Assembly: GCA_030688025.1 (NCBI GenBank)
Contig: JAUYJL010000023.1
Coordinates: 2,562-66,561 of the forward strand
Reading direction: 5' to 3'
DNA length: 64,000 bases
From: Candidatus Peregrinibacteria bacterium
GTDB taxonomy: Bacteria > Patescibacteriota > Gracilibacteria > UBA1369 > LOWO2-01-FULL-3
Made by a program: the position numbers and the translations under genes. Under the pieces are notes generated by a model that had not been told where the DNA came from, searched no databases, and saw only the letters and a list, made by a program, of their open reading frames with translations. Shown one piece after another: positions 574 through 50,732 of this stretch; the stretch's first letter is position 1, and the number at the start of each line of letters is the position of its first letter.

Positions 574-649
574 GGGCGGTTAGCTCAGTTGGTAGAGCGT
601 CTCGTTGACGTCGAGAAGGTCAGAGGTTCGAATCCTCTACCGCCCACCA
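574..649 (+). tRNA. tRNA-Val (anticodon GAC), CCA encoded
   Basis: The 76 nt fold by hand into a cloverleaf: acceptor GGGCGGT/ACCGCCC, D arm GCTC-AGTTGGTA-GAGC, anticodon arm TCTCG-TTGACGT-CGAGA, T arm AGAGG-TTCGAAT-CCTCT, discriminator A, then CCA. Confidence 0.93.
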
Positions 650-4242: not shown

Positions 4243-5892
4243 TTAATAAACCGCTTCAATATAGCATTTTTCACAGTAGACTTTTTCTTTGCGAGCTTGT
4301 TCGTAGACTGAGGAAATTTCTTTAGCGCATTTACTGCATTTCCTATCAAAAAGTTTTCGTGAAGTGCGTAGTTCCATTCTGTCTAAGTGCCTTTGATCGG
4401 GGTCTTTTCTCGGCAGAGGTAAGCCATTTTTCTTGTAAAAATCAAATTCCTTTTGGATGATTTTGAATAATTTTCCTGTGGACTGTGCTTTTATTGCTTT
4501 GGCTATTCCCGCTCCTTCAATGATGTCAGGTAAATCTTCCGCGTTTATTACATCTGCATTTTCAGCTTTTGAAACTTGTTCCTGTTCTTGCCAGTTGTAT
4601 CCGTGCTTTGACGCCTCTTCTTTGTTCAAAGGAAAATATTCCTGCGCGACCGTTTCGTTGTAGCCAAATGGAGAATATTTCGCTGGCGAGAATTCGCCAA
4701 ATCCCCCATTCTTTTCCAGATGAGCAATAATTTTCGGAACTAATTCTTCGTACTCTTCCTTTGTGTATTGTTTATTTAAAATGCAATATTGTTTGTGATT
4801 CAAGCCGTCGCAGCCAAAAAGATTTTTTGAATTATTGCATTGGTCGCAATAAAAAACTTCATTACAAAAATGGCTGGCCATACTGAACGCACTATTTGTC
4901 ATGCTTAGAGTGCTGATAAGTTCGTATGAAAGTTCAGGTTTATACAACGAATAATTCAAATCCATACAATCTTTCGCGTCCAAAACATCGTATAAATAAG
5001 CGCAATCCTCGCAATTTGTGACATTGAAAGCTTCGTTCACGTGTTTGCAATTTTTCAAATCATTACCGCTTGAGTCTTCGCAACTGACCTGATAGCTATC
5101 TCTAAAAATTGCGTTGTCGACTAAATGTTTTTTCCAAAATTGGCGAACGTTTTGTAAATTTTTGTATGAGCCATTGAAAATTTCTTTCATTTTTTTCGCG
5201 TAGTCTTCTTTTGAAACTTGTTTGTTGAAAATGTAATATTCTTTGTTTCTCAAATTGCTACAACCGATACAATTCTTACAACCAATACAGTCGTAGCAAA
5301 AGGCCAAATCTGAACAATTATTGCAATATTGTGAAAGTTTTACATTGTAGCAATCGTATGAATTTAGAGTTTCATAACAAAGCGTTGAATTATAAACAAA
5401 TGTGCAGTCGATGCAGTCTTTGCTGAATTTTGTAAAAAGATTGTAATAGCAATCTTCGTTTCCCTCGCCGGCAATGTCGAGATAGCAGTTTTTATCGTCA
5501 CCGCAATAATTGCAATATTCGCTGTTTTCACAATTCACTATATCGAGATTCATGCGCGGTACTGCGAGTTGAAGTTCTTTAAATTGTTCAAAAAATGGAC
5601 GATTAAAATCAAAGTCTCTGCCGTAATCCATCGCATCCCATTTATCTCCGTACCATTCTGATTGAGTATAAACTTTGTATGGAGTGTTTTCAGGATAAAG
5701 TGAAATCATTGTTGTTCCGCTTAGTGCCGATTTTGCCTTGTAGAAAGTGCGATCATTGCGCCATGCCATTCTCCTTTTGTTCCTACACGTAGGGCAAAAC
5801 GTCGGAGTCGGAAGATTTGTACGCGTAAAAAAAGCCTTTTGATTATCATCGATTTCAAAATCGTGCCCGCAATTTTTACAACCTTTTGTCAT
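4243..5892 (-). CDS. Cysteine-rich zinc-ribbon repeat protein of unknown function
   Basis: 549 aa with about 34 Cys (hand count). There are CxxC...CxxC ribbons at both ends (CKNCGHDF...CPTCRNKRR, CSKCAKE...CEKCY) and a central array of C-x2-C / C-x(5-12)-C units (CENSEYCNYCGDDKNCY...CYDCIGCKNCIGC). Confidence 0.75.
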   Translation of the reverse strand: MTKGCKNCGHDFEIDDNQKAFFTRTNLPTPTFCPTCRNKRRMAWRNDRTFYKAKSALSGTTMISLYPENTPYKVYTQSEWYGDKWDAMDYGRDFDFNRPFFEQFKELQLAVPRMNLDIVNCENSEYCNYCGDDKNCYLDIAGEGNEDCYYNLFTKFSKDCIDCTFVYNSTLCYETLNSYDCYNVKLSQYCNNCSDLAFCYDCIGCKNCIGCSNLRNKEYYIFNKQVSKEDYAKKMKEIFNGSYKNLQNVRQFWKKHLVDNAIFRDSYQVSCEDSSGNDLKNCKHVNEAFNVTNCEDCAYLYDVLDAKDCMDLNYSLYKPELSYELISTLSMTNSAFSMASHFCNEVFYCDQCNNSKNLFGCDGLNHKQYCILNKQYTKEEYEELVPKIIAHLEKNGGFGEFSPAKYSPFGYNETVAQEYFPLNKEEASKHGYNWQEQEQVSKAENADVINAEDLPDIIEGAGIAKAIKAQSTGKLFKIIQKEFDFYKKNGLPLPRKDPDQRHLDRMELRTSRKLFDRKCSKCAKEISSVYEQARKEKVYCEKCYIEAVY

Positions 5893-24348: not shown

Positions 24349-24423
24349 TGGTGCCGAAGGGCAGAATCGGACTGCCTACACATGGATTTTCAATCCACTG
24401 CTCTACCAATGAGCTACTCCGGC
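24349..24423 (-). tRNA. tRNA-Phe (anticodon GAA), CCA encoded, unusual T-loop
   Basis: The minus strand folds as: acceptor GCCGGAG/CTTCGGC (one G-U), D arm GCTC-ATTGGTA-GAGC, anticodon arm GTGGA-TTGAAAA-TCCAT, variable GTGTA, T arm GGCAG-TCCGATT-CTGCC, then A and CCA. The T-loop has C where the near-universal U55 is expected. Confidence 0.85.
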
Positions 24424-42648: not shown

Positions 42649-43998
42649 TTATTTTGCAAGTTGTGCGGCCTCTTTTCTTAGTTTATCCAGTTGTAGATTT
42701 CCGGCACCTCCTTGATGCTGCGACTCTTTTAGCATTTTTACGATATTGTCTTTATCAATTCTCATTTTGTCTAAATGCAGGCCGACTTCTCTGTATGCGT
42801 CTCTAAAGTTTTTGCCTTTTTTTACCAATGCAAACGCTTTGTGAGTTGCGAAGAGTTCCGGAGTCATGTCTTTGTACAAAGATTTTTCGTTTGGAATTAA
42901 TTTCTTAACAATTATTGAAGCGACCTTCATTGACATTTCCGTGTAGCGTAAGCCCAAAAACAAAGGTCTTTTTATTTCTTGTCCGTCTCTGTGGTAGCCT
43001 GAAACTTTGTTTAAAATATTCATCGTAATTTCATTTCTGCAAGAAATTACAGTCGCTGTTCGTCCTCTTATCAGTTCCGCGACATCAAGATTTTTCTTTT
43101 GTGGCATGATTGAAGAACCTGTTCCTATTTCGTCAGTGATTGTGAAAAATTTAAATTCCTGAGTTGTGAAAAGAAGGAAGTCGCTCGCCATTTTATTTAA
43201 TGAGAGCATTATTTGGCAACATGCTTCCAAGACCATTCCTTCGATTTTTCCGCGTGAGTTGTGGCAATAAATTACATTGCTCTGTGTGCGTGATAATCCC
43301 AAATCTTTTGACAATAAATCTCTGTCAAAGGCGAATGGAGAACCATATCCAGCCCCACTTCCAAGAGGATTTTGATCAACTAAAACATCGCTTATTGCAG
43401 ACATAATTTTGATGTCGTCGAGTAAGCTTTCCGCGAAGGATCCGTACCATGTTCCGAGTGTTGTAGGCATCGCTTTTTGCATGTGTGTAAATCCCGGCAT
43501 TGGGACAAATTCATGCTTTTGTGCCATGTCTAAAAGATCATTCACAAGCACCAAGGCAAGCGACTTCATCTCTTTCATTTTATCTTTTATGAAAAGTCTC
43601 ATCGTCACCAAAATCTGATCATTTCGTGAACGTGCCGTGTGAATTTTTTTACCGATATCTCCATGATGATCTGTCAGATAATTTTCTATTTTTGTATGAC
43701 AATCTTCGTCTTCCACTTTTAGTTGGAATTTTCCTGCTTTATACAGAGCCATTATTTCATCCAATCCTTTTTTCAAGACTATAAGATCCTTGTCTGTCAA
43801 AATTCCATGTCTGTTTAGCATTTTCCCGTAAGCGTATGAACCTTGAACGTCATAAGGAATAAGTTCCTGATCATAAATAACGTCGTCGCCGGAATTATAT
43901 AATTCTATAGTTGGGTTCAGTGTAAAACCTTTTTTCTGCCAAAGTTTTTTCTGGGCAGGCTCTTTTTTTGTTTTTGTCTTCGGGATTTTCTTAGTCAT
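42649..43998 (-). CDS. argH: Argininosuccinate lyase (fumarate lyase superfamily)
   Basis: TARSRNDQ, GFTHMQKAMPTTLG, GSSIMPQKKNLDVAELIRG (signature region). Confidence 0.85.
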   Translation of the reverse strand: MTKKIPKTKTKKEPAQKKLWQKKGFTLNPTIELYNSGDDVIYDQELIPYDVQGSYAYGKMLNRHGILTDKDLIVLKKGLDEIMALYKAGKFQLKVEDEDCHTKIENYLTDHHGDIGKKIHTARSRNDQILVTMRLFIKDKMKEMKSLALVLVNDLLDMAQKHEFVPMPGFTHMQKAMPTTLGTWYGSFAESLLDDIKIMSAISDVLVDQNPLGSGAGYGSPFAFDRDLLSKDLGLSRTQSNVIYCHNSRGKIEGMVLEACCQIMLSLNKMASDFLLFTTQEFKFFTITDEIGTGSSIMPQKKNLDVAELIRGRTATVISCRNEITMNILNKVSGYHRDGQEIKRPLFLGLRYTEMSMKVASIIVKKLIPNEKSLYKDMTPELFATHKAFALVKKGKNFRDAYREVGLHLDKMRIDKDNIVKMLKESQHQGGAGNLQLDKLRKEAAQLAK

Positions 43999-44009
43999 GG
44001 CAAAAAAAA

Positions 44010-45017
44010 TTATTGATTAAGTTTCATTGTTTTAAGTCCGTTTGTTGTGGCCATTTGTGCCAGTTTTTCGATGTCGTAAAATCTCACTGCGCTCGCAAGC
44101 ATGAGCACTTCTTCAAATAAATCTCCGTTGTCTTCAGGGACAAAAATGTCTGAGATATTGTCTGTTCCAAGTGAAACATTGATTCCATGCTCGAGCATTT
44201 CGTCGACCTGTGCAATCGAGTTGTGAAGTGGTGATAATTTATCTTTGTGCTGTTTCATACTGATTGCCGCCTTTGGACAAACTGTTACGTTTACGCCAAG
44301 TTCTGCCATTTTTTTGTATATTCTTTTTCTGTCTGATTCCATTTGTGCAGCAACAGAAATCGCGTGAACAAAAGTCACCCGTCCCTGCATTCCCGATTTT
44401 TCTATTGTGTCTAAAATCCATTCGCTGTCTTTTTCTTCCGGATTGTTTTCCTGATCCACGTGCATATCAATATCTTTGTTGAAATTTTTTGCCATGCTTA
44501 TCAAGAAATCCATATGTTTTTTATCTCCATCCGCTTTATTTCTATCTCTGGATGGAAGTCCTCCGACTACGTCACAAATCGCGCATGCTTTTTCAAATAG
44601 GTCCATTTTTTCTTTGCTAGGAGCCGTTCTGTCCTCATTCAAAAATCCCTCCAATGGATGAGCTACGAGTTGAAGGGTGAATTTTCCTTTATATTTTTCT
44701 CTAACCTCTGCCGCTGTATCTACTACCAGCATTCCCACTATGCTATCGGCATCAACGTGGGTTCTGCAGGCCGTGATTCCCTGCTTGATAAAATCCTCAA
44801 TACAAAATGTGAGTCTTTCTGTCAGCGATTCTTTTGTGTGCTTTCTTTTTATCTCGCGATTTAAAACCCATTTTTCCTCCATCAATGCAGAAGCTTGCTT
44901 CCAAATTTCAGGAGTAAGTGTATATGCCCGATCGAGATGTGCATGGCAATTAGCCATTCCTTTGGCCTTTTTAACCTCTTCAAAAAAAAGTTCTTTGAAC
45001 GGAAATTTCTGTATCAT
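44010..45017 (-). CDS. Amidohydrolase superfamily protein, cytosine deaminase-like
   Basis: Metal ligand pattern: NCHAHLDR, RTHVD, DMHVDQ, TFVHAIS, GTDNISD. Confidence 0.72.
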   Translation of the reverse strand: MIQKFPFKELFFEEVKKAKGMANCHAHLDRAYTLTPEIWKQASALMEEKWVLNREIKRKHTKESLTERLTFCIEDFIKQGITACRTHVDADSIVGMLVVDTAAEVREKYKGKFTLQLVAHPLEGFLNEDRTAPSKEKMDLFEKACAICDVVGGLPSRDRNKADGDKKHMDFLISMAKNFNKDIDMHVDQENNPEEKDSEWILDTIEKSGMQGRVTFVHAISVAAQMESDRKRIYKKMAELGVNVTVCPKAAISMKQHKDKLSPLHNSIAQVDEMLEHGINVSLGTDNISDIFVPEDNGDLFEEVLMLASAVRFYDIEKLAQMATTNGLKTMKLNQ

Positions 45018-45090: not shown

Positions 45091-45330
45091 CTAGAGTTTT
45101 TTGTAAATATCTTTGCGGTGATCTATGTTCACCAAGATATTTTGACCACCTTCTATTTTGTAAACTAAACGTAACGTTCCTGAACGAATACGATAGTAGT
45201 TGCTGAATCCGGCAAGTTTTTTTGGCTTTAACTTGGCAAGATCATTGTTTATGATTTTTTGCCAAATCCCAAAGATTACTGCTCTTCTCTTTGCATTTAA
45301 TTTGTCTAATATTTTTTGCATTTTATCCAT
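45091..45330 (-). CDS. RelE/ParE family toxin
   Basis: The 79 aa end in YYRIRSGTLRLVYKIEGGQNILVNIDHRKDIYKKL. The gene overlaps the upstream antitoxin gene by 8 nt. Confidence 0.75.
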   Translation of the reverse strand: MDKMQKILDKLNAKRRAVIFGIWQKIINNDLAKLKPKKLAGFSNYYRIRSGTLRLVYKIEGGQNILVNIDHRKDIYKKL

Positions 45331-45559
45331 CCATTTTTTTTATAGCTTGCTTGAATTTCTCAAAATCTAGTCCGCTTTCACAATAAATCCCAAAACTTTT
45401 TTCATCTTCATAATAAACTGTTTCGTCCTTAACCAAGGGCTTAATGAGCAATCCATCTTTGGTTTCTTCGGCGATGAACTTGGTTGTCTTGTATTTATTC
45501 CTCCAAACTTTTGGTAAAGTAATTTGTCCTGTATTAAACATAGATAAAGTGTAAATCAT
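45323..45559 (-). CDS. AbrB/MazE (SpoVT-AbrB) type antitoxin
   Basis: MFNTGQITLPKVWRNKYKTTKFIAEETKDGLLIKPL is a swapped-hairpin DNA-binding pattern. Confidence 0.75.
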   Translation of the reverse strand: MIYTLSMFNTGQITLPKVWRNKYKTTKFIAEETKDGLLIKPLVKDETVYYEDEKSFGIYCESGLDFEKFKQAIKKMDG

Positions 45560-45564
45560 AGTAA

Positions 45565-45595
45565 AATTAGTTAATTTGATTAATTTAGTTAATCC
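45565..45595. promoter_or_regulatory. Repeat/palindrome cluster upstream of the toxin-antitoxin operon (possible operator)
   Basis: aattagTTAATttgATTAAtttagttaatcc: TTAGTTAAT occurs twice, around a TTAAT-N3-ATTAA palindrome, 6-36 nt upstream of the antitoxin start. Confidence 0.35.
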
Positions 45596-45730
45596 TACTA
45601 TGGGATTGATAAAAACACAAGCATTGTTGCATATGGATTTAAAATTTTCGTTAAATAATTCTAAAATCCTGAGATTGGAAAAATGGAATCAGTGGACGTT
45701 TTTATATTTTTTGTTATGCCACAGATATCG

Positions 45731-46687
45731 TCAAAGATTAAGTCTTTCCAAAACTACCCAATCAAAATATTTTTGATATTCTTCATCACAATGTTTCTTT
45801 ATAAGTCCGCTGTAGCTTGAGATGTTTGCATGATTTAGCTTTTGCGTAGCACGTTTCAAGCTTCGTTTGTTTAAGATTCTGCCTGCCGGCAAAAGATTTA
45901 TTCCTAAAAACTTTAGCGTGTGCGAAGGTTTTATAATTTTATCGCTTTTTGGATTTACCGTTAATTTTAATTCATTTTTTAAAAAATTTATTGTTTCTAC
46001 TCTAAAAAAATTCAATTTTTCTGCATCATTTTCGAGCAAAATAAAATCATCGCCATAGCGTAAATATTCCTTTGGCTTCAAAGTATGTTTTACAAATCTA
46101 TCGAGCTCGTTCAGATAAATATTTGCAAAAATTTGGCTTGTGAGATTCCCGATCGGCATGCCTATTTTTTCATATTTGATGCTACCGAAGTTTCGAATAA
46201 TTTCACGTATTAAGTTGATAGTTATTTTATCTCTTATTTTCCGATCCAAAATTCCAAGTAGAATTTCCTGATCGACGCTGTCGAAAAACTTCCTTACATC
46301 GCATTTCCAGATATAACTATTCGGATAACACCGTAGAAATGTTTGGGTTCTTTCTATCGCGGCCATCAGCCCTTTTTTAAGCCTGCATGACCACGCATCG
46401 TAAATAAAAGTTTTGTCATATATTTTGTTTAAATAATCGTAAATAAGTCTATGCACCACTCTGTCGCGAATATCAGCCACTGAAATTTCTCTTTTTTTAT
46501 TGTCACAAACGATAAATTTTCGATATCCACCATGCTTATATTTTTCTGAATTCAGGTCGAGGAAAAGCGTATAAAGATTTTTCTCCAAGTTGTATTGGAA
46601 ATATTGTAATTCGGAGGTAGAGTGCTTTCCTTTTCTGAAAACAAACCAGCTTCCCCAAATATTTTTTAAACTTAAATCTATGGACAT
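45731..46687 (-). CDS. Reverse transcriptase, DGR type
   Basis: 318 aa. N-terminal FRKGKHSTSELQYFQYNLEKNLYTLFLDL, RKFIVCDNKKREISVADIRDRVVHRLIY, DAWSCRLKKGLMAAI, motif 4 GMPIGNLTSQIFANIYLNELD ([ILV]GxxxSQ, the DGR hallmark) and the YxDD box LRYGDDFILL. No maturase or endonuclease extension. Confidence 0.85.
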   Translation of the reverse strand: MSIDLSLKNIWGSWFVFRKGKHSTSELQYFQYNLEKNLYTLFLDLNSEKYKHGGYRKFIVCDNKKREISVADIRDRVVHRLIYDYLNKIYDKTFIYDAWSCRLKKGLMAAIERTQTFLRCYPNSYIWKCDVRKFFDSVDQEILLGILDRKIRDKITINLIREIIRNFGSIKYEKIGMPIGNLTSQIFANIYLNELDRFVKHTLKPKEYLRYGDDFILLENDAEKLNFFRVETINFLKNELKLTVNPKSDKIIKPSHTLKFLGINLLPAGRILNKRSLKRATQKLNHANISSYSGLIKKHCDEEYQKYFDWVVLERLNL

Positions 46688-46919
46688 ATTTCCGATAATT
46701 AACAGGTGTTACGAAACGTATAAGCTACTTATAATCTTGAACGGTGGATTAAGCAAAAAGATGAGGTATTCCCTTGGAACATCCGTTGAAAACAACACCC
46801 TTGAGCTCTTGGATTTATTGATATTGGCAAAAAATGCACCGGAGACAAGAAAAGACGCATTTTTTGACCAAACCCATCCGTTCCACCAATTCAGTCGCAA
46901 CCGATTGGTTTTTCTGTGA
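46680..46919 (+). CDS. Avd-like (four-helix-bundle accessory variability determinant) ORF, short and on the opposite strand
   Basis: MDIFPIINRCYETYKLLIILNGGLSKKMRYSLGTSVENNTLELLDLLILAKNAPETRKDAFFDQ... follows the Avd / 23S-IVS four-helix-bundle pattern (..CY..., K..RY.LG..xEN..L.LL..I..A). It is only 79 aa against the usual 110-130. Its ATG overlaps the RT start by 8 nt, divergently. Confidence 0.5.
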   Translation: MDIFPIINRCYETYKLLIILNGGLSKKMRYSLGTSVENNTLELLDLLILAKNAPETRKDAFFDQTHPFHQFSRNRLVFL

Positions 46920-47061
46920 GAATTGAGCTTGGCTCAAACGTGGTGGTTTATGTGCTTTTTATTTGCGGTAGCCTTGCCTATCTTAAGGGCAGGTGTCTAT
47001 TCACCGCGCACCAAAGATTAAAGCAAAAAAGACAAAGAAAAGTCAAATCTCAAAATTCAAT

Positions 47062-48153
47062 TTACCCCACCACCACGGGACGAACACGGGCGTAATCGCA
47101 ACCAACCTCCGGATAGAGCTCACGGAAATTGACCCTAAAGTCACCATACCAAGGGTTGCGGCCATAGGCGCCGGAGACAAGATTGTCATCTCCGATTATT
47201 TTGTGGGAAGCATTTTCTTCAGATAGCATTGTCCATCCATTTAAATCCAATATATCTTTGGCTTGCGCTTGTAGCACAGCATATTCTCTAGGAGTCACTG
47301 TTCTTGTAAGTTTTGCTAAATCGCTTCCTTCCCATGTTTCGACTATATCTCTAAGTTTTCCTTGTCTATTTTGAGGTTCTTGCGTCATTTCCCCTATTCC
47401 AAACTTATACTGCGCAGGTTGTCCTTTTCTTTCCTCTATTAGGGCTTTATCTTGCTCAGAAAATGCTTTTTTCCTGCTATCGCTGGTAAAAACGTCATCC
47501 TGTCTTCGTCTTTTTTTGTTTGCATTCAAAAACCCTACATAAGATTCGAATGACTGCATTTCAGGAGGCAAAACTACAAGTCCCGGAACTTGTATATTTC
47601 TCATCAATGCCTCTATTTGTTCAGGAGTAAAACGATTTGTCATCGTCATTGCTTGCAAAATTTCACTGTCTGTCGGGATTTCAATCCTTGCATTCGCGAA
47701 GGCTTTTCTTACGCTTGGCAGTGCTTGTCCTATTGTTGCTTCAAGATATTTCTTATGCTCAGATGTGTGTGGACTTTTGCTTAGAAGGATTAGCGGACCT
47801 TTGGAAGGTGTAGTTGTGGCTGGGGCAGCCGGAGAAGTTTCTGTAGTGGACGCGTCTGTAGCCTCGACAGCTGGAGATGTTGCTGTGTCTGTTTCGAGAT
47901 TAACGTCTATCGCTCCCCTTAGGGCTTCGTCTAAGGTATCATTGTAGTCTTTTCTGTGAGCTCCAACTATAAGTTTGATCGCCATCAAAATTTGATCGCC
48001 TGATGCATTTTCCACTCCTGACACTTGAAGTGATTCTTTTGCTGTGACAATCAATTGTTCAGTATCGTAAGCTAATTTTGAATCCGAAGAATCAAATTCT
48101 GTTTCGCGTTTTTGTTCTCCCTCAAATCCTTCTGGTAGTTCATTGAATTCCAT
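47062..48153 (-). CDS. Hypothetical protein (363 aa); candidate DGR variable protein
   Basis: An acidic N terminus and a Thr/Ser/Pro/Ala linker are followed by a C terminus ...LNGWTMLSEENASHKIIGDDNLVSGAYGRNPWYGDFRVNFRELYPEVGCDYARVRPVVVG*. That end loosely resembles the end of C-type-lectin-fold DGR targets. The gene ends 375 nt upstream of the RT on the same strand. Confidence 0.65.
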   Translation of the reverse strand: MEFNELPEGFEGEQKRETEFDSSDSKLAYDTEQLIVTAKESLQVSGVENASGDQILMAIKLIVGAHRKDYNDTLDEALRGAIDVNLETDTATSPAVEATDASTTETSPAAPATTTPSKGPLILLSKSPHTSEHKKYLEATIGQALPSVRKAFANARIEIPTDSEILQAMTMTNRFTPEQIEALMRNIQVPGLVVLPPEMQSFESYVGFLNANKKRRRQDDVFTSDSRKKAFSEQDKALIEERKGQPAQYKFGIGEMTQEPQNRQGKLRDIVETWEGSDLAKLTRTVTPREYAVLQAQAKDILDLNGWTMLSEENASHKIIGDDNLVSGAYGRNPWYGDFRVNFRELYPEVGCDYARVRPVVVG

Positions 48154-48191
48154 AATTGTGATTATTATAAACTAGGAGAGTATTAAACACC

Positions 48192-49541
48192 TCAATCGGT
48201 TCTTTTGTCAAGGCTTGAGTGGTGAACAACCACTATATCCCCTACATTTGTCCCCGAAGGACCCGTGTAGATGAGGCAATCGAGGTTTTTTAGTGCCGTG
48301 TATGAATCGTTATTTTGAAGATATTTTTCTATATCGATATTCTTTTCTTTGCAGAGTTTTTTTAAGTTCCGTGTGATTATTGCGCCGGCGACCGGGACTG
48401 GCGCGATACCATCTACTCCGTCTGTCGCAAGAGACATGAGGGCATGATGATTTGTTTGCTCGTGGCTTGAACGGATGCCTGAGATCGATGGGATTTCGTT
48501 TATCGCGCTTAAAGCCAATTCCTGATTTCGTCCGCCAAATCCTTTTCCGATGATTTTCACGACTGTTTCACCGCCGAAAAGATAAATTTTATTTTTTTGT
48601 TTGGATTTCGCAAAAAGTTTTTTTGGCATAAGTTTTGCTTCGCCTTCCAAGAAGTCAGGAAAAATTTCGACTGAATATTTTTTCTTTTCTAAGAATTTTT
48701 GTAAATGTTTTAGTGCGACTGTGTTACTTCCGATTACATAATTTTTTACTTTTTTATCATTTATCGACTTTGGAGTTTCGTTTACTGCAAGCACTTTTTC
48801 GGCTTTTGCGTTTTTTATTCCGTATTTTTTTAAGACATTAAGTGCATCTTTCGAAGTGCTTTTATCTAGAACTGTCGGACCTGATGCAATGATGTCTAAA
48901 TCATCATTTTTCACATCCGAAATGTATAGAGCGATCAAATCTGCCGGCATTATTTTTGCTGCTAAATTTCCACCTTTTATTTCAGACAAATGTTTTCGCA
49001 CTGTATTTATTTCGTGAATTGTCGCAGTCGATTTTAGAAGTTGTTTTGTGATTTCAACTTTGTCTTTTAGGCTTAATGGAGCGATTGGGGCAGGAAGCAT
49101 CGCAGAGCCTCCGCCACTAATTAGGCAAATCACCAAATCATCTTTGCCAGCTTTTTTTGCAATTTTTAAAATTTCTTGTGTACCCTTTAGACCATTTTCA
49201 TCTGGAAATGGATGACCCGCTTTATTAACTTTTATTTTTCCGAGATTTTTTGTTATAGCTTCTGGCACGTTGATAAATCCCTCAGTGATGCGATTTCCTA
49301 GCAGTTTATTTATTTCTTTAGCCATAGAGTAGGTCGCTTTTCCGGCACCGATTACAAAGATTTTTTTGTATTTTTTTAAATCGAATTTCGCTTTTTCAAT
49401 TTGAAGTTTTGATCCCGTTAATTTTACTGAATTTTTTATCAGATTTTCCGGAGACAAAAAATTCAATGCCTCATCGGCGATATCAAGAAAAAGCCTTGAA
49501 TCAGGGAAATTCTTCAGTAACTTTTTCCGATTTTTTATCAT
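48192..49541 (-). CDS. Glycerate kinase, MOFRL/DUF4147 (GckA/TtuD) family
   Basis: VIGAGKATYSMAKE, CLISGGGSAMLP, LFGGETVVKIIGKGFGGRNQELALSA, ATDGVDG. Confidence 0.88.
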   Translation of the reverse strand: MIKNRKKLLKNFPDSRLFLDIADEALNFLSPENLIKNSVKLTGSKLQIEKAKFDLKKYKKIFVIGAGKATYSMAKEINKLLGNRITEGFINVPEAITKNLGKIKVNKAGHPFPDENGLKGTQEILKIAKKAGKDDLVICLISGGGSAMLPAPIAPLSLKDKVEITKQLLKSTATIHEINTVRKHLSEIKGGNLAAKIMPADLIALYISDVKNDDLDIIASGPTVLDKSTSKDALNVLKKYGIKNAKAEKVLAVNETPKSINDKKVKNYVIGSNTVALKHLQKFLEKKKYSVEIFPDFLEGEAKLMPKKLFAKSKQKNKIYLFGGETVVKIIGKGFGGRNQELALSAINEIPSISGIRSSHEQTNHHALMSLATDGVDGIAPVPVAGAIITRNLKKLCKEKNIDIEKYLQNNDSYTALKNLDCLIYTGPSGTNVGDIVVVHHSSLDKRTD

Positions 49542-49616
49542 AGGAGGAAGTTTTCAAATACTATCAAACCAGTTTGTTCACCGAAAATCTTTTTACGTAC
49601 TTTTTTGCGATTTGGT

Positions 49617-50591
49617 TTATTTTGCCAAAACTTCCGGATTCAAAATCGCTACAGGTTTTTCACCTTCAACTAAAACTCCGATTATATTTTTTGCGGCAAT
49701 CTCAGACATTTTGCTTCTTGCTTCCCATGTTGCAGAAGCCGTATGTGGAGTCATTACGACATTTTTGCATTTCTCAAGTCCGCTCAAACGTCTTGGTTCT
49801 TTTTCGAAAACATCCATTCCGGCACCTCTGATTGTACCGTCTTGAAGGGCTTTCAAAAGCGCTTCTTCGTCGACAACAGGTCCACGTGCTGTATTGATCA
49901 AATATGCAGTTTTCTTCATTTGTTTAAGTTCTTTTTCTCCTATAAAATGACGAGTACTGTCATTCAATGGAACATGCACACTGACGATATCTGATTCTCT
50001 CAAAAGCTCATCCATTTCAACTTTTTTTGCATGTTCATGATTTTTTTCGTTGTGATCCATGTAAAGGATTTTGCAATCGAAAGCTTTTTCCATCATTTCT
50101 CCAAGTTTCTGTCCGATTCTTCCATATCCAACGATTCCGACTGTTTTGCCTTCTAGCTCTGTTCCAAGCATATACATTGGGCCCCAACCCGGGAATGAAT
50201 CTTCCCTCATGACCATGTCTCCTTCGTTTGTTCTTTTTGTAACTGACATGATAAGAGCAAGTGCGTGTTCTGCTGTAGATTGAGTCAAAACTTCAGGTGT
50301 ATTCCCAACAGCAATTCCTCTTTTTGTAGCTTCTGGAACTTGAATATTGTCGTATCCTACTGCGAAAGCTGAGATTATTTTAAGGTTTTTTGCTTTATCC
50401 ATTACTTCCGAATCCATTTTGTCCGTCAAAATCGTGATAATTCCATCACAATCTTCTATTTCTTTCATCAATTCTTCTCTTGGGATAGGGCTGTTTTCCC
50501 TTCTTACTTTCAAATCGAAGTGTTGTTCAAGCATTTTTAGCCCAGACTGCGGAATCTCTCTCGTGACGAATACCTTTTTTCTTGTAGACAT
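49617..50591 (-). CDS. D-isomer specific 2-hydroxyacid dehydrogenase (glyoxylate/hydroxypyruvate reductase type)
   Basis: GKTVGIVGYGRIGQKLG, LINTARGPVVDE, and MTPHTASAT. I chose the start at MSTRKK (50591) because the listed N-terminal extension covers a hairpin terminator-like element. Confidence 0.9.
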   Translation of the reverse strand: MSTRKKVFVTREIPQSGLKMLEQHFDLKVRRENSPIPREELMKEIEDCDGIITILTDKMDSEVMDKAKNLKIISAFAVGYDNIQVPEATKRGIAVGNTPEVLTQSTAEHALALIMSVTKRTNEGDMVMREDSFPGWGPMYMLGTELEGKTVGIVGYGRIGQKLGEMMEKAFDCKILYMDHNEKNHEHAKKVEMDELLRESDIVSVHVPLNDSTRHFIGEKELKQMKKTAYLINTARGPVVDEEALLKALQDGTIRGAGMDVFEKEPRRLSGLEKCKNVVMTPHTASATWEARSKMSEIAAKNIIGVLVEGEKPVAILNPEVLAK

Positions 50592-50732
50592 TGTATTGGT
50601 GTTAAGATAAATCAGAGGGTCTTTAACCCCCTCTGTTTGTAATTCAACCATCTTTCGAGAAAAAATGCAATTGGTTTTTAAAATGTCAAATGAGGCTCCG
50701 TGTTGTTATACGAAGCCCCATTGTCTTTTTCT

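Follow-up and report, generated by a model that had tools for sequence, protein, structure and literature searches.

The window analysed here, 64 kb of a 73-kb source contig, contains a DGR-type reverse transcriptase (RT) gene that adjoins an Avd-like ORF on the opposite strand and a 363-aa ORF, and for which no pair of template repeat (TR) and variable repeat (VR) had been seen. The locus raises the question whether it represents a variant architecture, a DGR served by repeats located elsewhere, or an element that was rearranged or has decayed. The evidence set out below makes it very probable that a chromosomal DGR of the B3 type, typical of CPR, was inactivated when 290 nt were lost in one deletion between two copies of the microhomology CGGTGC. 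The features of the locus are collected in Table 1; searches within the genome cover the window.

Table 1. Features of the DGR locus, given as positions in the window.
Feature	Position	Strand	Details
DGR RT gene	45731..46687	-	318 aa; apparently intact
Truncated avd ORF	46680..46919	+	79 aa from ATG at 46680; overlaps RT start by 8 nt
Deletion junction	46836..46841	-	CGGTGC microhomology; global alignment versus L001
Surviving TR 5' end	46836..46850	-	15 nt, TCTTGTCTCCGGTGC; aligns with first 15 nt of L001 TR
Non-coding leader between VR and TR	46851..47061	-	211 nt; 97-98% identical to L001
VR, 3' end of target gene	47067..47182	-	Compared with L001 TR; template now gone
G-rich IMH-like VR end, GTGGTGGTGGGG	47065..47076	-	
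DGR target gene	47062..48153	-	363 aa; ends ...ARVRPVVVG

The coordinates and motifs assigned to the RT, the 363-aa ORF and the Avd-like ORF in the original prediction were all correct on re-examination. The RT includes the motifs FRKGK..NLEKNL, GMPIGNLTSQIFANIYL and RYGDDFILL, and gave a Pfam RVT_1 match at E 2e-18. The sequence IGNLTSQ conforms to the [ILV]GxxxSQ pattern of motif 4 used to recognise DGR RTs, and both IGNLTSQ and RYGDD are invariant or nearly so among 121 RT homologues. The best match in the PDB is the Bordetella DGR RT (bRT, 8ub7) with E 5.6e-38, as compared with E 2.5e-21 for the best group II intron RT, and the closest genomic relatives of the window RT belong to cassettes that have a TR/VR pair. 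As judged by these matches, the RT belongs to the DGR clade, as had been proposed. Retron, group II intron and Abi/UG defence RTs were considered and rejected, the scores with curated models being far under the respective cut-offs (138 bits versus 300 for the group II RT/maturase model and 61 versus 235 for retron St85; well under the cut-off for the Drt2, Drt3 and Drt4 models). No intron or retron RNA was found by Rfam in 45500..48300.

The assignment of the locus to a DGR that has the 363-aa gene as its target was also upheld. This gene is an ortholog of the VR-bearing 323-aa gene of L001, the corresponding locus in the closest relative. Thirteen other homologues of the target were found, of which the 11 close ones are from Gracilibacteria, Peregrinibacteria and metagenome contigs. 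The last ~35 residues are hypervariable in 12 homologues and lie inside a conserved frame, G..W..V.F..P..ARVRPVV, which we take to resemble VRs of the CLec type. The 363-aa product gave no Pfam, NCBIfam or PDB match. A CLec fold had been considered for its C terminus; variable proteins of the Mtd, TvpA and AvpA class display the VR on a CLec or FGE-like fold. An AlphaFold2 model built from 12 sequences had a mean pLDDT of 58, with values below 50 at residues 313-363; a Foldseek search of the PDB with this low-pLDDT model returned nothing at E <= 0.001, a profile search of PDB sequences returned nothing meaningful, and neither revealed a detectable similarity to Mtd of Bordetella phage BPP-1.

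The Avd-like ORF lies, as described originally, on the strand opposite to that of the RT gene, encodes 79 aa and overlaps the RT start divergently. It gave no match in Pfam and a weak one to the NCBIfam model DivGenRetAVD (E 5e-4; 20 bits versus a cut-off of 80), which extends over profile positions 2-50 of 104. The match supports the proposed identity as an Avd, but only for half of such a protein. The avd-derived part comprises 46680..46841 (codons 1-54), and the remainder of the ORF is read-through into the antisense strand of the leader, ending at a TGA codon. Residues 1-54 are the same as in the L001 Avd except for V36I, and the similarity ends at the deletion junction. The L001 Avd has 114 aa and matches PF22296 (bAvd). 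Left over are 54 of 114 codons for an Avd, an accessory protein that most DGRs have and that is a four-helix bundle of about 110-130 aa.

Reading TGA as Gly, as in genetic code 25, would lengthen the Avd-like ORF to 113 aa, and the closest relative is labelled Gracilibacteria. This code was rejected since window ORFs of 770, 712, 680, 607 and 579 codons contain no in-frame TGA, and 26 of the 116 window ORFs of at least 100 codons end in TGA.

L001 is syntenic with the window and encodes an RT that is 92% identical to the window RT. Its genes and repeats are in the order target/VR, 211-nt leader, TR, avd (114 aa, reverse strand) and RT. The genes common to the two loci are those for a 2-hydroxyacid dehydrogenase and a glycerate kinase, the target, avd (-) and RT, and further a ParE-like gene and genes for an amidohydrolase and an argininosuccinate lyase. 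In a global alignment, the window is colinear with L001 save for one gap of 290 nt, corresponding to L001 5557..5846. The sequence CGGTGC is present at both edges of the gap, within avd at one edge and in the 5' end of the TR at the other. The TR was thereby lost from nucleotide 16 onwards, with its IMH*-like 3' end, and so were avd codons 55-114. A separately assembled Logan contig from sample SRR13727534 is 100% identical to the window over 4336 nt, junction included; a scan of JGI metagenomes gave no match to the junction.

The absence of a TR/VR pair, reported originally, was borne out for the whole 64 kb: no pair with mismatches confined to adenines was found when the window was scanned against itself for direct and inverted repeats, with either strand as the template (60-nt windows, at most 2 non-A mismatches). 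The same method readily detects the TR/VR pair in relatives. Looser scans (50-nt windows, at most 3 non-A mismatches) were applied to the first related loci, and the window was searched by the strict scans and a generic repeat finder. The latter revealed what had been overlooked, namely a direct repeat, D1, between 46836-46850 and 47168-47182, in which 14 of 15 positions match. As judged by the alignment with L001, the 15-nt copy at 46836-46850 is what remains of the TR at its 5' end.

The TR and VR of L001 are located at about 5546..5667 and 5215..5336, respectively. The scan of this pair showed no non-adenine mismatch in any 50-nt window, and a base-by-base comparison over 116 nt gave 22 mismatches at adenines and one at T. 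When the window VR was compared with the L001 TR, 25 mismatches were observed over 116 nt, of which 24 are at TR adenines; adenines account for 38 of the 122 L001 TR positions compared. The comparison with the orthologous TR points to an ancestral TR/VR pair at this locus. The window VR occupies the last ~39 codons of the target gene, and its G-rich IMH-like end, GTGGTGGTGGGG, differs from the TR end of the relative, GTGATGATGGTT.

Two short-read contigs stop at the 3' boundary of the VR; one belongs to the strain of the window and the other to the relative. Such contig ends could hint at population heterogeneity at this position and are the single, indirect hint of ongoing diversification.

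The orientation of avd is not peculiar to the window and L001. All 16 further loci with upstream DNA (L006-L014 and L016-L022) have their Avd match on the reverse strand, directly upstream of the RT gene; a full-length Avd is encoded in 15 of the 16, and in most of them avd is both full length and overlaps the RT start. A TR/VR pair without any non-A mismatch is present in 14 of these loci; in L021 the contig ends within the pair, and the upstream DNA of L014 is limited to 480 nt. The arrangement TR-(avd)-RT, with avd on the reverse strand between the TR and the RT gene, is architecture B3, to which 90% of a CPR DGR set is reported to belong (Wu et al. 2018, Nucleic Acids Res 46:11; PMC5758913). 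The window retains the order and orientations of B3 (target/VR, TR, reverse-strand avd, RT), the avd stump at 46680..46841 (+) lying next to the RT gene with the TR stub beyond it, and the earlier suggestion of a variant architecture finds no support as a novelty. The window copy differs from B3 in that it is without the TR except for 15 nt and without the second part of avd, and by the criteria of Wu et al. 2018 it would not pass as putatively functional.

The inactivated or partial DGRs recorded in surveys (Wu et al.) likewise have a DGR-clade RT, a truncated accessory gene and no usable TR/VR pair. Unlike in those cases, an intact orthologous locus is at hand for the window and allows the inactivating event to be reconstructed to the base. 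The prototype DGR of Bordetella phage BPP-1 (mtd-avd-TR-brt) shares with the window clade a homologous RT, an Avd accessory protein, adenine-specific TR-to-VR differences and a VR at the 3' end of the target with a G-rich IMH-like run. It differs in the position of avd, which in the window clade is on the other strand, between the TR and the RT gene. Furthermore, the clade has a structured RNA 5' of the TR, whereas the Bordetella spacer (Sp) is 3' of the TR.

As the comparisons show, the ancestral cassette consisted of target/VR, a structured leader, TR, reverse-strand avd and RT, and one deletion between the two CGGTGC microhomologies removed the TR, but for its first 15 nt, together with the 3' half of avd. 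What is left is the RT gene, intact, the leader RNA gene, the TR stub and 54 avd codons that run on into unrelated sequence. The VR keeps a record of past adenine mutagenesis, the target gene being left with its last diversified state, presumably frozen now. A decaying DGR, which was among the explanations offered originally, is hence the one that the 290-nt deletion supports. In the Bordetella DGR, the TR is the sole template and Avd is needed for cDNA synthesis. Since both requirements are affected here, the function of the DGR has probably been lost. Given that the RT has not decayed, that the leader is still 97-98% identical to that of L001 and that the avd stump differs from L001 in its 54 codons mostly by synonymous changes (four, and one conservative difference), the deletion appears to be recent relative to the split from the closest relative.

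Retained function has to be considered next, as an intact and apparently constrained RT would also fit it. The RT, perhaps with the leader RNA, might be kept for a TR-independent function, either acquired or original. The RT retains 101 of 102 columns of at least 90% conservation, the single exception being found also in the intact relative, its dN/dS versus L001 is 0.13, and the leader is nearly the same as that of the relative (Table 1). However, a recent deletion alone predicts the same figures, and purifying selection after the deletion is indistinguishable from such recency. The window RT branch shows neither an excess nor a deficit of changes versus the intact relative (7 lineage-specific changes in the window and 9 in the relative, with no acceleration in the lineage), and the RT gene is apparently free of decay. 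The pattern of purifying selection in the avd stump must predate the truncation, and the outright decay of the RT in clade members L019, L021 and L022 argues against a general TR-independent role. Repurposing of the RT is regarded as unlikely.

Somewhat less probable still is a DGR that continues to work, either on remote targets or with a TR, and perhaps an Avd as well, supplied from another place in the genome; a TR/VR pair elsewhere with a remote target had also been proposed. The intact and conserved RT speaks for it, and a second TR or DGR elsewhere in the genome is conceivable, the MAG of the relative having two DGRs (L005 and L017). However, the TR of the second DGR in that MAG is unrelated and has a different 3' end. 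Moreover, the TR of the window is missing exactly at its ancestral site, only 54 of the 114 avd codons are left at the locus, and no other TR-like sequence, second RT or target paralogue was found in the 64-kb window.

The 290-nt gap might alternatively be an assembly artefact caused by repeat collapse, the real genome having an intact DGR. The TR and VR are repeats, regions of this kind misassemble easily, and contigs break at the VR edge. Nevertheless, what meets the TR 5' end at the junction is the middle of avd and not the VR, a shared stretch of six nucleotides would not make a de Bruijn or overlap assembly collapse, and the separately assembled Logan contig reads identically across the junction. 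An artefact is considered very improbable. Hardly credible is an inversion of the avd segment 46680..47061 in the window genome followed by its degradation and destruction of the TR, as once suggested by an avd that runs opposite to the RT and target genes and overlaps the RT start, since colinearity with the intact relative holds to either side of the gap, no inversion breakpoints are present, avd is on the reverse strand by the RT start in every related locus with upstream DNA, and the layout is that of the published B3 architecture.

With the deletion from a B3 cassette as the preferred explanation, the locus is most probably an ordinary, recently inactivated DGR copy and not a new architecture. 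The layout that had been called atypical is the standard one of CPR DGRs, and one deletion accounts, to the base, for the missing pair; therefore, the locus should be annotated as an inactivated DGR and not as a new type of retroelement. It provides a clean natural example of DGR death, in which the template and the accessory gene were lost before any decay of the RT.

A by-product of the clade comparison may matter more, namely a conserved structured RNA that precedes the TR and forms pairs with its 3' end; this side observation may be new. The part of the leader aligned across the clade corresponds to 46866..47008 in the window. Its consensus structure includes 27 pairs, 20 of them with compensatory changes, and 95% of the cells are paired, as compared with 37-51% in slid controls. 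Complementarity to the 3' end of the TR, a part that the window has lost, is found in the leader block 46939..46958 (AAAGCACATAAACCACCACG), and in the clade loci this block covaries with that end and with the sequence flanking it. Directly after this block, the leader strand pairs with the sequence just 5' of the TR. In the window itself, the leader is intact, its partner having been lost. No Rfam family matched the leader; Rfam searches, run on the locus, on the entire window and on six related loci, yielded no more than two tRNAs and two low-scoring matches below the gathering score, the latter in two related loci. The conserved leader was detected in the JGI metagenome scan only in an already known contig, and a sigma-70 promoter scan of 46600..47200 found none.

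After the deletion, the leader block could still form 9 bp with the VR end, and self-templating by the VR was considered on this ground. It was judged very unlikely because half of the duplex, its flank, and most of Avd are lost.

In the Bordetella DGR RNA, the cPRT Stop duplex comes after a template:primer TR:Sp duplex (Handa et al., bioRxiv 10.1101/2023.10.23.563531). The clade leader has a primer-like duplex followed by a stop-like duplex in the same order. It differs from the Bordetella Sp in being located 5' of the TR, hence it would be a circular permutation, and the window element further differs in that its TR partner is deleted. The clade leader, as a covarying and strand-specific structured RNA, is tentatively proposed to be an undescribed DGR RNA element, a permuted counterpart of Sp in B3-type CPR DGRs, though we would put this at somewhat below an even chance. 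Priming from the leader is put forward only as a hypothesis by analogy with Sp. If true, most CPR DGRs would be cis-primed from a position upstream of the template. In published work, DGR RNA elements were sought in the 40 nt upstream and the 100 nt downstream of the TR, and, should the leader be a functional Sp counterpart, such searches would miss it in the architecture that dominates in CPR. In L006, L007, L016 and L019, the leader block matches the IMH of the VR better than the TR end, and the leader RNA might also guide the choice of target.

The locus is a real diversity-generating retroelement (DGR) of known architecture, which we infer to have been inactivated by one reconstructed deletion. 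The ORF list agrees with the gene coordinates of the original prediction. The reverse transcriptase (RT) has an RVT_1 domain (Pfam), and its best relative of solved structure is the Bordetella DGR RT (8ub7, E 5.6e-38; group II intron RTs, 2.5e-21). Scores of the RT against retron, group II and DRT models were far under the curated cut-offs. The Avd-like ORF gave no match in the Pfam search and a weak one to the NCBIfam Avd model, confined to positions 2-50 of the 104 in the profile.

Features of the DGR locus in the window
Feature	Coordinates	Strand	Remarks
RT ORF, 318 aa	45731..46687	-	FRKGK..NLEKNL, GMPIGNLTSQIFANIYL, RYGDDFILL
Target ORF, 363 aa	47062..48153	-	C-terminus ...ARVRPVVVG
Avd-like ORF, 79 aa	from ATG at 46680	+	8-nt overlap with RT start codon
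Leader, non-coding	46851..47061; structured part 46866..47008	-	same position in related loci L005-L022, e.g. L010 3293..3553
Leader block AAAGCACATAAACCACCACG	46939..46958	-	just 5' of helix 3; complementary to TR 3' end and 3' flank

The whole 64 kb was compared with itself, in direct and inverted orientation, each strand serving in turn as template and mismatches at its adenines being allowed without limit. These scans returned no pair of template repeat (TR) and variable repeat (VR), which bears out the earlier failure to see one. The window also holds no second RT, TR or target paralogue. A generic repeat finder gave a single 15-nt repeat, 46836-46850 versus 47168-47182, with 14 of 15 positions matching.

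Among thousands of RT homologues, the closest (P0001, 92% identity) is encoded on a 331-kb contig, L001, that is syntenic with the window and carries genes for a 2-hydroxyacid dehydrogenase, glycerate kinase, a 323-aa protein, a 114-aa protein on the reverse strand (Pfam bAvd), the RT, a ParE-like protein, an amidohydrolase and argininosuccinate lyase. The same adenine-tolerant scan located a TR at about 5546..5667 and a VR at about 5215..5336 in L001, with no non-adenine mismatch in any of the 50-nt windows; base by base, the 116-nt homology includes 22 mismatches at adenines and one at T. In a global alignment the window is colinear with L001 except for one 290-nt gap (L001 5557..5846) with CGGTGC at both edges. 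The gap takes out the TR from nucleotide 16 on and the 3' part of avd, and the 15-nt repeat in the window is the TR stub. Hence, the decaying DGR that had been put forward as one explanation takes the form of a single deletion. Across 4336 nt, junction included, a separate Logan contig (SRR13727534) and the window share 100% identity, and the deletion is therefore no artefact of one assembly. A search of JGI metagenome contigs gave no match to the junction.

Compared with L001, five codons are changed in the avd stump (codons 1-54), four of them synonymously and one to give V36I; past the junction the ORF continues into unrelated sequence and ends at a TGA stop. Of 102 RT columns with at least 90% conservation among 121 sequences, 101 are retained in the window, the single exception being common to the intact L001 relative. 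The dN/dS of the RT versus L001 is 0.13, and when changes were placed with outgroups, 7 fell on the window branch and 9 on that of the L001 relative. Between VR and TR, the non-coding leader is 97-98% identical to that of L001. Together, these data fit a deletion that would be recent in comparison with the divergence of the window and L001 lineages. The Bordetella DGR uses the TR as its template and needs Avd and flanking RNA for cDNA synthesis (Handa et al., bioRxiv 10.1101/2023.10.23.563531); by analogy, the DGR in the window would have lost its function. The dS values versus L001 are 0.34 for the RT, 0.39 for the target and 0.9-1.9 for flanking genes (n=4), and the cassette as a whole (45731..48153) is much less diverged than the housekeeping flanks 42649..45017 and 48192..50651. 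The cassette may be under strong constraint, or the lineages may have exchanged it more recently.

A search in which each species was represented by one genome gave 19 loci, comprising the L001 contig again (L005), 17 further relatives (L006-L022) and one distant match; the relatives are labelled Candidatus Gracilibacteria, Peregrinibacteria or Peribacteria. L015, which begins 53 nt before the RT, was left out of the upstream count. Of the further loci, 16 include DNA upstream of the RT, and every one of these has a reverse-strand Avd match directly before the RT; in 15 of the 16 it is full length (109-115 residues), with a start that overlaps or nearly abuts that of the RT. TR/VR pairs whose 50-nt windows are free of non-adenine mismatches, with up to 10-17 adenine mismatches, were found in 14 of the 16 loci; the contig end truncates the pair in L021, and the upstream DNA of L014 extends to only 480 nt. 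In 13 of the 14, the TR end lies a few bases at most from the avd stop; in L007 it falls about 120 nt short. Thus, the layout that the original prediction called atypical is normal for the clade and already published as architecture B3, TR-(avd)-RT (Wu et al. 2018, PMC5758913).

The metagenome-assembled genome of L001/L005 carries a second B3-type DGR (L017, JALNWA010000003.1) with an RT 68% identical to that of the window and an unrelated TR and target; hence, multiple DGRs per genome occur in this lineage. Deletional decay of the cassettes is recurrent in the clade. L019 (4001..4652) has an internal RT deletion of residues 185-286, YGDD among them; in L022 (3862..4183) the RT is reduced to residues 38-98 and Avd to residues 70-113, although a TR/VR pair free of non-adenine mismatches is kept; in L021 (782..1018) only RT residues 2-80 were seen.

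Directly downstream of the RT in the window are genes for a ParE-like toxin (79 aa) and a MazE/AbrB-like antitoxin (78 aa) at 45091..45559 (-). Their counterparts at the matching L001 position (127 aa and 91 aa) share only 30-39% identity with them, against 83-92% for the genes on either side. The module adjoining the DGR looks as if it has been swapped.

In some Gracilibacteria, TGA encodes glycine. This code (code 25) was considered for the window, as the closest relative is labelled Gracilibacteria and a glycine at TGA would make the Avd-like ORF longer. TGA does not occur in frame in the long genes and is the stop codon of a normal share of the ORFs; the organism thus uses the standard bacterial code. 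The only RNA genes found in the window are tRNA-Val (574..649) and tRNA-Phe (24349..24423).

When the L001 TR takes the place of the missing template, the VR of the window shows 25 differences over the 116-nt homology, 24 at TR adenines and one at T, adenines making up 38 of the 122 TR positions compared. At the limit of homology the VR reads GTGGTGGTGGGG and the TR GTGATGATGGTT, which is the usual distinction between IMH and IMH*, the 3' ends of VR and TR. As judged by this mismatch pattern, the window has a real, formerly diversified VR. A search with the target protein gave 13 other homologues, the 11 close ones being from Gracilibacteria, Peregrinibacteria and metagenome contigs. An alignment of 12 sequences shows a scaffold conserved as far as ...GDDNLVSG, after which the last 35 or so residues are hypervariable inside a fixed frame, G..W..V.F..P..ARVRPVV. 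In the predicted model, pLDDT is below 50 across the VR region, and neither a fold search nor a sequence search against solved structures gave a match. The target (363 aa) aligns well with its shorter L001 homologue (323 aa) from about residue 115 on; the N-terminal 110 or so residues (about 47830..48153, -) are indel-rich and unalignable, and no signal peptide was seen there by eye. Two short-read contigs from separate assemblies, L004 (Logan SRR13727534, window strain; end at window 47066) and L002 (JGI 3300037810, from the relative; position 1), terminate at most a few bases from the 3' boundary of the VR, which may reflect population heterogeneity in the VR.

As a finding the DGR is ordinary, and of its elements only the leader RNA might be worth pursuing. 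Conservation of the VR-to-TR spacer extends across the clade; its length is 211 nt in the window and L001, where the middle part is missing, and 270-370 nt in the other loci. The consensus structure from 16 leader sequences (alignment A2) has 27 pairs in five helices, with compensatory changes in 20 of the 27. Paired cells amount to 95.4%, versus 37-51% with partners slid by 1-3 columns, and none of 500 shuffles reached any observed measure. Three G.U pairs, one of them invariant and two nearly invariant (13 of 16 sequences), indicate that the functional strand is the TR/RT sense strand. The leader is a conserved, strongly covarying structured RNA. It matched no Rfam family, and no description was found in the literature searched, a search that did not extend to Paul et al. 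2017.

The leader block co-varies with the TR 3' end and 3' flank across loci; in L001, about 5445..5465 pairs with 5653..5675. Summed over 11 representative loci, the duplex energy is -212.9 kcal/mol for cognate and -146.3 +/- 18 for permuted combinations (p about 5e-5). Unconstrained folds of leader plus TR contain at least 10 long-range pairs between leader and TR 3' end in 14 of 15 loci, and in about 12 of those 14 the partner is the equivalent of the block. Pairing of the block with the TR 3' end is followed in the leader by a strand pairing just 5' of the TR. The order corresponds to that in the Bordetella spacer RNA (Sp), where the cPRT Stop duplex comes after a template:primer duplex (Handa et al., bioRxiv 10.1101/2023.10.23.563531), although the clade element lies upstream of the TR. 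The topology resembles a circularly permuted Sp, and it may be hypothesised by analogy that the element primes cDNA synthesis. In L006, L007, L016 and L019, the block fits the VR/IMH version better than that of the TR.
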